Below, piece by piece: positions 10,594 to 11,082 of a DNA stretch of 30,710 bases. The notes beneath the pieces were generated by a model. It made no database searches. It was not told where the DNA came from and saw only the letters and a program-made list of their open reading frames with translations. The translations under genes and the position numbers were made by a program. Numbering within the stretch: position 1 is the stretch's first letter; each line of letters starts with the position of its first letter. Source of the DNA: a virus (lineage: Duplodnaviria; Heunggongvirae; Uroviricota; Caudoviricetes); IMG/VR virus record IMGVR_UViG_2529293040_000025, positions 1-30,710 of that record. One strand, written 5' to 3'.

Positions 10594-11082
10594 ATGAGTC
10601 TGTTAAATGACGTTCAGAAATTCATTGAAGCCCATCCGGGCTGTACTTCCGGAGACATTGCGGATGCTTTTGCAGGTTACTCACGGCAGCGCGTTCTGCA
10701 GTCAGCAAGCAAGTTACGTCAGAGTGGGCGTGTGGCTCACCGTTGTGAAGGAGATACACACAGACATTTCCCGCGCCTGACTGAGAGAGCGCAGGATCCG
10801 GAACTACAACCAGTTCGTGAAACCAGACCTGTGCGCAATTTCTATGTCGGCACTAACGACCCGCGGGTGATTTTGTGCCTGACCCGCCAGGCGGAAGAAC
10901 TGGAGTCCAGGGGCTTATACCGTCGTGCTGCAACGGTGTGGATGGCGGCATTCCGTGAAAGCCACTCCCAGCCAGAACGAAACAATTTTCTGGCGCGTCG
11001 TGAACGGTGTTTACGGAAAAGCAGTAAGCGGGCTGCATCAGGTGAAGAGTGGTATCTCTCAGGGAATTACGTGGGGGCTTAA
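10594..11082 (+). CDS. PerC-family transcriptional regulator-like protein
   Basis: C-terminal GLYRRAATVWMAAF...ARRERCLRK resembles the PerC/Pch core as recalled. Start set at the ATG after a GGGGG RBS; the ORF-track ORF starts at GTG 10588. Confidence 0.45.
   Translation: MSLLNDVQKFIEAHPGCTSGDIADAFAGYSRQRVLQSASKLRQSGRVAHRCEGDTHRHFPRLTERAQDPELQPVRETRPVRNFYVGTNDPRVILCLTRQAEELESRGLYRRAATVWMAAFRESHSQPERNNFLARRERCLRKSSKRAASGEEWYLSGNYVGA

Follow-up and report, generated by a model that had tools for sequence, protein, structure and literature searches.

The gene at positions 10594..11082 (+ strand) of the prophage DNA analysed here (IMG/VR record IMGVR_UViG_2529293040_000025; the whole stretch of 30,710 nucleotides is called the window) raises the question of whether its family connects the induction of a phage with the expression of host genes or acts in phage replication and transcription alone. 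A first-pass annotation made from the sequence had described the product as a PerC-like regulator through which the prophage may reprogramme host transcription. The gene, yfdN, is among the most widespread uncharacterised prophage regulators, found in roughly half of all complete E. coli genomes as well as in SfII and Stx2c phages. Its label of "transcriptional activator" is inherited from PerC by way of half a domain, and divergent relatives of PerC are inactive on LEE1 or repress it.

The locus adds no new kind of element, and its resemblance to PerC is real but ordinary. RefSeq, Pfam, PHROGs and the literature already record the gene together with its PerC-family label and its location in prophages. 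What the present analysis adds is a domain map, the finding that the PerC match covers half of that domain, an invariant yet facultative position after the replication initiator, and an argument that expression depends on induction.

Identity, reading frame and prophage context of yfdN

The gene in the window is, with near certainty, the lambdoid-prophage gene yfdN. Over its full length it is 99.4% identical in nucleotide sequence to yfdN of the E. coli K-12 cryptic prophage CPS-53/KpLE1, for which the RefSeq label is "PerC family transcriptional regulator", and phrog_1324 ("transcriptional activator") matches residues 1-161, the full length, with E=4.4e-78. The neighbours are also those found in CPS-53, with a yfdO-type initiator gene upstream and a yfdM-type Dam gene downstream, and the gene itself shows no material difference. 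The window prophage is the more complete of the two, with a full-length Dam gene and with Q, lysis and terminase genes present.

Almost half of the complete E. coli genomes searched (2670 of 5426) have a match to yfdN. Phage records with the gene number 49 and include Shigella phage SfII, mEp460 and many Stx2c-converting phages. A large protein collection contains hundreds of clusters under the name "PerC family transcriptional regulator" (Escherichia, Salmonella, Citrobacter and Hafnia), and more relatives of yfdN are present in Shigella, Leclercia and Kosakonia.

The reading frame is intact and runs on the + strand for 162 codons plus stop, from an ATG at 10594 to a TAA at 11080-11082, as read from the sequence and the ORF list. 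The ORF call, the Pfam PerC and phrog_1324 matches, the identity with K-12 yfdN and dN/dS values all support this gene. A Shine-Dalgarno-like AGGGGG (10583..10588, +), likewise read from the sequence, lies 5 nucleotides 5′ of the ATG and within the final codons of the initiator gene. The gene is tightly packed on both sides, since the initiator stop codon (TGA, 10589-10591) is separated from the yfdN ATG by a gap of 2 nucleotides and the yfdN stop overlaps the start of the Dam methyltransferase gene as TAATG, with the dam ATG at 11082.

RefSeq starts yfdN at a GTG at 10588, giving a protein of 164 amino acids that opens MIMSL (window 10588-10596). We favour coordinates that begin at ATG 10594 because all distant homologues open with MS(L/I) at this position in the alignment. 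The GTG start leaves no space for Shine-Dalgarno spacing, and the RefSeq start is probably two codons too early.

Comparisons of yfdN with its relatives gave overall dN/dS values of 0.12-0.25. The values are low in each of the two folded domains, whereas constraint is relaxed in the connecting linker. Both the gene and its two domains are under purifying selection. Two ORFs on the opposite strand (10853-11125 and 10842-10985) were rejected, having no homology support and lying opposite a + frame that is under purifying selection. No Rfam family was matched within 10594-11082, and an RNA element beneath yfdN was rejected accordingly. Repeats inside the gene are just short pairs at chance level. 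PADLOC returned no match for yfdN, and a role as an anti-phage defence component was rejected as well. A tblastn search with PerC, Pch and YfdN located no further gene of the PerC/Pch type in the window.

The window is a lambdoid prophage. Its CI-type repressor gene (6663-7316, −) is followed by a CII/YmfL-like gene (7637-8221), an Ash/Rha antirepressor region (about 8824-9381) and the gene for an O-like or DnaD-like replication initiator of 330 amino acids (9599..10591, +; phrog_391 'replication initiation O-like', E=1.3e-101). Downstream of yfdN are genes for a Dam-type N6-adenine methyltransferase (11082..11735, +; Pfam Dam E=9.8e-46, TIGR01712 255.6 bits), a 108-amino-acid protein consisting of a LexA DNA-binding domain only (11732-12058, +; Pfam LexA_DNA_bind E=2.9e-19), RusA (12055-12444), a KilA-N protein (12464-13273), an IS4/Tn5-type transposase (13534-14907, +; Tnp_DNA_bind, DDE_Tnp_1 and Tn5 dimerisation domains), a DUF968 protein (14923-15828) and the Q antiterminator (15800-16594). 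Three tRNA genes (CAT, Arg-TCG and Arg-TCT; 17097-17346) and a nanS-p esterase gene (19023-20876) come next, with lysis and packaging genes after them. The gene therefore lies where the first-pass annotation had placed it, in the replication/nin region, between the replication gene and those for Dam, RusA, KilA-N, DUF968 and Q.

A weak consensus scan of positions 9300-12200 detected neither a sigma-70-like promoter nor, on the + strand, a terminator-like site, and an internal promoter or terminator splitting yfdN from the initiator gene was rejected for the + strand on this basis. Because yfdN lies 3′ of the CI/Cro region and the scan revealed no promoter-like site for it, the gene is expected to be silent in the repressed lysogen and made after induction. 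Its product is probably made solely after induction, or where a cryptic prophage is derepressed, whereas a stable lysogen would not make it. In strain CFT073 under NO stress, a 12.6-fold rise of yfdN accompanies the induction of phage tail genes and SOS genes (PMC5320621), which fits induction-dependent expression.

Several other features of the window were recorded. No S24 peptidase domain was detected in the protein encoded at 11732-12058, which may be an uncleavable LexA-like protein in the nin region. The KilA-N and DUF968 genes are adjacent in a related prophage (L001) and are separated by the transposase gene in the window, so 13534-14907 looks like an IS insertion. Rfam models match isrK at 8578-8654 (+, 59.3 bits) and C4 antisense RNA at 8679-8766 (+, 82.3 bits), just 5′ of the Ash/Rha antirepressor coding region, in an arrangement that resembles the immI-type antirepressor control of P1 and P7. 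An ORF of 387 amino acids (8218-9381) runs across both RNA genes, for which reason its N-terminal half is probably not real; the RefSeq Rha protein in L001 is shorter. A TerB-domain gene and an STnc100 sRNA (102 bits) are located between the tRNA cluster and nanS-p, at 18041-18544 and 18716-18885. The order of Q, tRNA genes and nanS-p is typical of Stx phages, which carry stx in the interval between the tRNA genes and nanS-p; the ORF list holds no ORF of stxA size in this interval of the window.

Domain architecture and relation to PerC and ANR proteins

An AlphaFold2 model of YfdN built from a 37-sequence alignment comprises two independent domains, both predicted with confidence. Residues 1-60 (10594..10773, +) form a winged helix-turn-helix domain with the a1-b1-a2-a3-b2-b3 order of that fold. 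They are followed by a disordered linker (residues 61-89; 10774..10860, +; pLDDT ~54) that varies in length and sequence across the family and in which dN/dS is 0.5-1 in two comparisons. Residues 90-148 (10861..11037, +) make up a three-helix PerC/ANR-type core (Pfam PerC, AlphaFold2) with the motif A..LE..GLYRRAA..W..AF....R......RR..C, whose helices at residues 90-105, 109-122 and 126-143 are modelled with pLDDT values of 97-98. The protein ends in a short tail (residues 149-162; 11038..11079, +) of the form W-x-L-(A/S)-G-x-(Y/F)-x-G. This tail motif is absent from PerC/Pch and is retained in YfdN relatives of ~30% identity; L155, G157 and G161 are invariant in the family alignment, and the model has low confidence here.

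The most fitting description of YfdN is a fusion of a winged helix to the three-helix module that is common to the PerC and ANR families. This two-domain architecture is retained in relatives of 25-47% identity, and the winged helix, PerC-type core, LAGxYxG tail and full-length similarity place the window protein within the YfdN subfamily (PHROG 1324). Sequence matches of the winged helix are marginal, reaching E=3e-4 at best (BlaI/MecI, MarR and ArsR-type proteins), and its top structural matches include protein-binding winged helices (MotA-NTD and RPA32C). In BlaI/MecI, MarR and ArsR proteins, further domains mediate dimerisation or signal sensing, and these domains are absent from YfdN.

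The C-terminal motif had been recognised in the first-pass annotation as PerC-like, and a profile search upholds this observation. The Pfam PerC model (PF06069) matches residues 98-149 with 36.1 bits (E=7.8e-9), which is a significant match above the curated gathering threshold of 22.6 bits. However, the resemblance extends over model positions 5-56 of 90 only, such that it stands for the core and fails for the C-terminal third. An alignment with PerC, Pch and PchE reveals that YfdN is without this last segment of ~35 amino acids (IKQ.V...Y...G....FR.Y). The region preceding the core, estimated in the annotation at about 70 amino acids, actually spans ~90-97 and is largely taken up by the winged helix.

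Pairwise comparisons agree with the profile. BLASTP aligned YfdN with PerC of the EPEC plasmid pMAR2 at 37% identity over 46 amino acids (E=1e-6), with a 104-amino-acid Pch-type protein of a related prophage at 41% over 44 (E=1e-7), and with PchE of strain Sakai at 40% over 52 (E=5e-10), the last being the best pairwise match to the core. The core common to YfdN, PerC, Pch and PchE reads A..LE.KG(L/F)YRRAA..W....R....RR..C, and A100, L103, R111, A112, A113, R136 and C139 are invariant or nearly so in the family alignment. YfdN therefore has the core residues and the curated score expected of a PerC-family member, although it does not match the model over all 90 positions and, at 162 amino acids with an added winged helix and linker, is not a small single-domain protein of ~90-105 amino acids. 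Because only half of the PerC model is matched, the function of PerC may not transfer to YfdN.

Close comparisons can be made with PerC of the EPEC EAF plasmid and with PchA, PchB and PchC of EHEC prophages, activators and anti-silencers of LEE1/ler, which share their N-terminal helical core with YfdN (A..LE.KG(L/F)YRRAA.RW....R....R..C; 37-41% identity over 44-46 amino acids). These are single-domain proteins of 89-104 amino acids that carry the further C-terminal segment and have neither the winged helix and linker nor the distinctive tail of YfdN. Genomic settings differ as well, since the Pch-type gene of the related prophage lies between lysis and terminase genes, outside the early operon, whereas yfdN lies inside it. 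That prophage (L002) carries the 104-amino-acid Pch-type gene at 1336-1650 (−; NZ_CP074961.1 5356835-5357149) besides yfdN, and the window has no counterpart.

PchE, from the Sakai element Sp7, is like YfdN encoded directly 3′ of replication genes (primase and SSB) in a mobile element. However, it is a protein of 90 amino acids without a winged helix and has only the core in common with YfdN, and we rejected it as the O157 orthologue. In Sp7 (L004, 11103-12044; ECs_1586-1588), pchE comes right after a small ORF and the SSB gene, 3′ of the primase gene, and just 5′ of the capsid genes of this small element. PerC-family genes have been listed, alongside DNA primase, as typical genes of phage-inducible chromosomal islands (PICIs; PMC11773190), and mobile elements may repeatedly carry them in this place, immediately 3′ of replication genes.

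The PerC match invites the interpretation that YfdN acts in the lysogen as a PerC/Pch-like activator of chromosomal virulence loci such as ler/LEE1. This interpretation draws on a score above the curated threshold and on core residues held in common with PerC, Pch and PchE. Against it stand the missing C-terminal third and the location of yfdN in an early operon under repressor control, where the scan gave the gene no promoter-like site to itself. Moreover, roughly every second complete E. coli genome carries yfdN, K-12 laboratory strains among them, and most of these genomes probably lack the LEE.

Published data on relatives of PerC bear on the same interpretation. Deletion of yfdN, described as "the K12 unique PerC homologue", was judged a prudent precaution when a ler-lacZ reporter strain was constructed, but in the same study PchD had no effect on ler and PchE activated it by less than 2-fold (PMC5931665). 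The effects of PchE also depart from those of PerC in the repression of curli and adhesion. PerC2 and PerC3 appeared to be inactive (reviewed in PMC4332760), and the PerC-family protein of the PICI EcCIMP1 represses LEE1 while other PICI PerC-like proteins have no effect (PMC11773190). Given this range of weak, absent and opposite effects, membership of the PerC family is no predictor of ler activation. Reprogramming of host virulence by YfdN is possible but is not the likeliest reading of its sequence, and activation of ler/LEE1 in the lysogen appears very unlikely.

The core also resembles the ANR family. The NCBIfam ANR model (NF033650) matches residues 96-142 with 23.5 bits (E=3.6e-5), which is below the model's cut-off of 32 bits. 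The published ANR signature consists of A10, E14, A22, W26, A29, W43, R47 and C in a three-helix protein of <10 kDa (PMC4983702). On inspection of the alignment with this signature, A100, E104, A112, W116 and A119 of YfdN show exactly the published spacing, R136 and C139 are one residue closer, and the second tryptophan is not conserved. The ANR proteins Aar, Rnr and Cnr have a three-helix core like that predicted for YfdN. In contrast to YfdN, with its 162 amino acids and two domains, they are single-domain proteins of <10 kDa, and they accompany AraC/XylS-type regulators. The annotated neighbours of yfdN include no AraC-type gene.

YfdN could accordingly be viewed as a pure anti-activator of the ANR kind, a repressor that inactivates a host or phage transcription factor (of the AraC/XylS type or another) by contact and without specific DNA binding. 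The authors of the EcCIMP1 study propose an ANR-like function for the PICI protein that represses LEE1 (PMC11773190), and a predicted interactome cluster entitled 'negative regulation of transcription' includes YfdN. Nevertheless, the subthreshold ANR score, the missing AraC-type neighbour and a conserved winged helix under strong purifying selection, which single-domain ANR proteins do not have, make this view decidedly unlikely.

Position after the replication initiator

Synteny was examined in 160 related viral loci whose yfdN-like proteins range from 100% down to ~28% identity. In each of the 156 loci that include upstream DNA, an ORF of at least 100 amino acids either ends 2 nucleotides before the yfdN-like start or overlaps it by 4 nucleotides (ATGA). 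Every one of these upstream ORFs that we annotated is a replication initiator, such that the window gene and all 156 of its examinable relatives share a position directly 3′ of the initiator. Coupling to the replication gene, as the first-pass annotation had suggested for the window, is thus seen as tight packing in every related locus where it can be examined.

YfdN proteins that are nearly identical to one another (97-100%) follow initiators of 313, 272 and 330 amino acids with unrelated bodies. The sole part common to these otherwise unrelated initiators is a conserved tail, which in the window comprises the last 33 codons (10490..10588, +) and ends IPAGFRG. Across loci the tail ends (I/V)P(A/E)GFRG, and the longer pattern ...(F/Y)(K/R)(S/T)S..x.DY(S/T)xIP(A/E)GFRG is represented by loci L085, L134, L136, L143, L146 and L149. 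The GFRG residues are encoded by differing codons, which places the conservation at the protein level, and the tail is found with or without yfdN after it.

The reverse test started from the initiators. Among 117 that bear the tail, a YfdN-like gene comes next in 91 but not in the other 26, and YfdN thus occupies the first post-initiator slot only facultatively. At 17 of the 26 loci lacking YfdN, inspection of the next gene revealed mostly methyltransferases of the Dam, D12 or C5 type, the others being a DnaC-like AAA+ protein, a DUF1627 protein and short unannotated ORFs. YfdN is independent of initiator type, and we infer that it is independent of ori specificity as well. An obligatory partnership with the initiator in replication is weakened both by the 26 loci and by the lack of co-variation with initiator type. 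The DUF1627 protein, which has 214 amino acids and gives several weak HTH-type matches, occupies the slot after a GFRG-bearing initiator at 5840-6481 (+) of L275 and 4549-5190 (−) of L281, where it would represent another protein of the HTH type in the place of YfdN.

The strict post-initiator position could instead signify a role in replication. As a replication accessory, YfdN would cooperate with the initiator, for instance through contact with the IPxGFRG tail, or would recruit or regulate the host helicase, from the slot taken by P in phage lambda and by gene 12 in P22. The junction of initiator and yfdN-like gene, unbroken in 156 of 156 loci, holds at ~30% identity and with initiators of unrelated bodies. 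No separate helicase-loader gene is visible in the module, a DnaC-like AAA+ protein fills the same slot at one locus, and winged helices are common in replication proteins, with RPA32C among the structural matches. On the other hand, YfdN is optional, being absent after 26 of 117 initiators with the same tail, and at most of the 17 loci inspected the initiator leads directly to a DNA methyltransferase gene. YfdN proteins that are 97-100% identical are associated with at least three initiator types whose N-terminal domains are unrelated. In addition, YfdN is similar to no helicase-loader family, and its sole relatives of known function are transcription regulators. We consider a replication accessory unlikely for these reasons.

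The downstream neighbour suggests a further function, the control of the DNA methyltransferase in the manner of the C-proteins of restriction-modification systems. Methyltransferases of at least three unrelated families are encoded directly 3′ of yfdN-like genes in diverse phages, and in the window the yfdN stop overlaps the dam start. However, other nin-type genes and no methyltransferase come after many yfdN-like genes, methyltransferases occupy the same place where yfdN is absent, and an overlap of this kind implies co-translation rather than promoter control. Such a function is hardly likely at all.

An ori-like array is present inside the initiator gene at 9944-10101, where iterons are succeeded by A-rich repeats. 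The iterons are 4-5 copies of a 21-23-nucleotide sequence (ATCGGGTCAAAATG.CC..AT) at a spacing of 23-24 nucleotides (9944-10058), and the three A-rich repeats of 12 nucleotides (10063-10101) are in the stretch of lowest GC content in the region (0.42). This layout resembles that of the lambda ori within gene O.

Proposed role of YfdN

The searchable literature contains no experiments on YfdN function. The gene has appeared as an over-expression hit in a glycogen screen and within a genomic fragment that causes filamentation. The cluster that holds YfdN in the computed interactome is a prediction only.

On balance we think it moderately probable that yfdN, which directly follows the initiator gene in the early-right operon, encodes a regulator of the early lytic cycle that uses its winged helix as a tether and directs its core against silencers or other regulators. 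Under this model, the winged helix would hold YfdN on DNA or on a partner protein. The core would then interfere with nucleoid-associated silencing complexes (H-NS/StpA/Hha), as for Pch, or would alternatively act on other regulators through protein-protein contact, as for ANR proteins. The main target would be the phage's own DNA, and effects on host genes would be secondary and could go in either direction.

The two proposed actions of the core have precedents among its relatives. Pch relieves silencing by H-NS, StpA and Hha at LEE1 (PMC4764244), although H-NS could not be co-precipitated with PchA (Fukui et al., unpublished observation given in the same paper), and direct binding of H-NS by a core of this type is consequently not established for Pch. 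For ANR proteins, both the binding of AraC-type regulators and an action on H-NS have been described (PMC4983702; PMC5570504). Taken by itself, the anti-silencing mechanism is a tentative proposal by analogy, for which we see somewhat less than an even prospect.

A more specific form of the early-regulator reading, which we regard as rather unlikely, is that YfdN-type proteins constitute a distinct class that acts in lytic growth only. Here a PerC/ANR core tethered by a winged helix would be delivered together with the initiator and would open phage DNA coated by nucleoid proteins, both for replication and for the passage from early to late transcription. If so, virulence control would have recruited free-standing relatives of this core, namely the short PerC, Pch and PICI proteins.

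The tail of the initiator loosely resembles the LAGxYxG tail of YfdN. The conserved, disordered tails of both proteins, IPAGFRG in the initiator and LAGxYxG in YfdN, could be peptide motifs that bind host factors.
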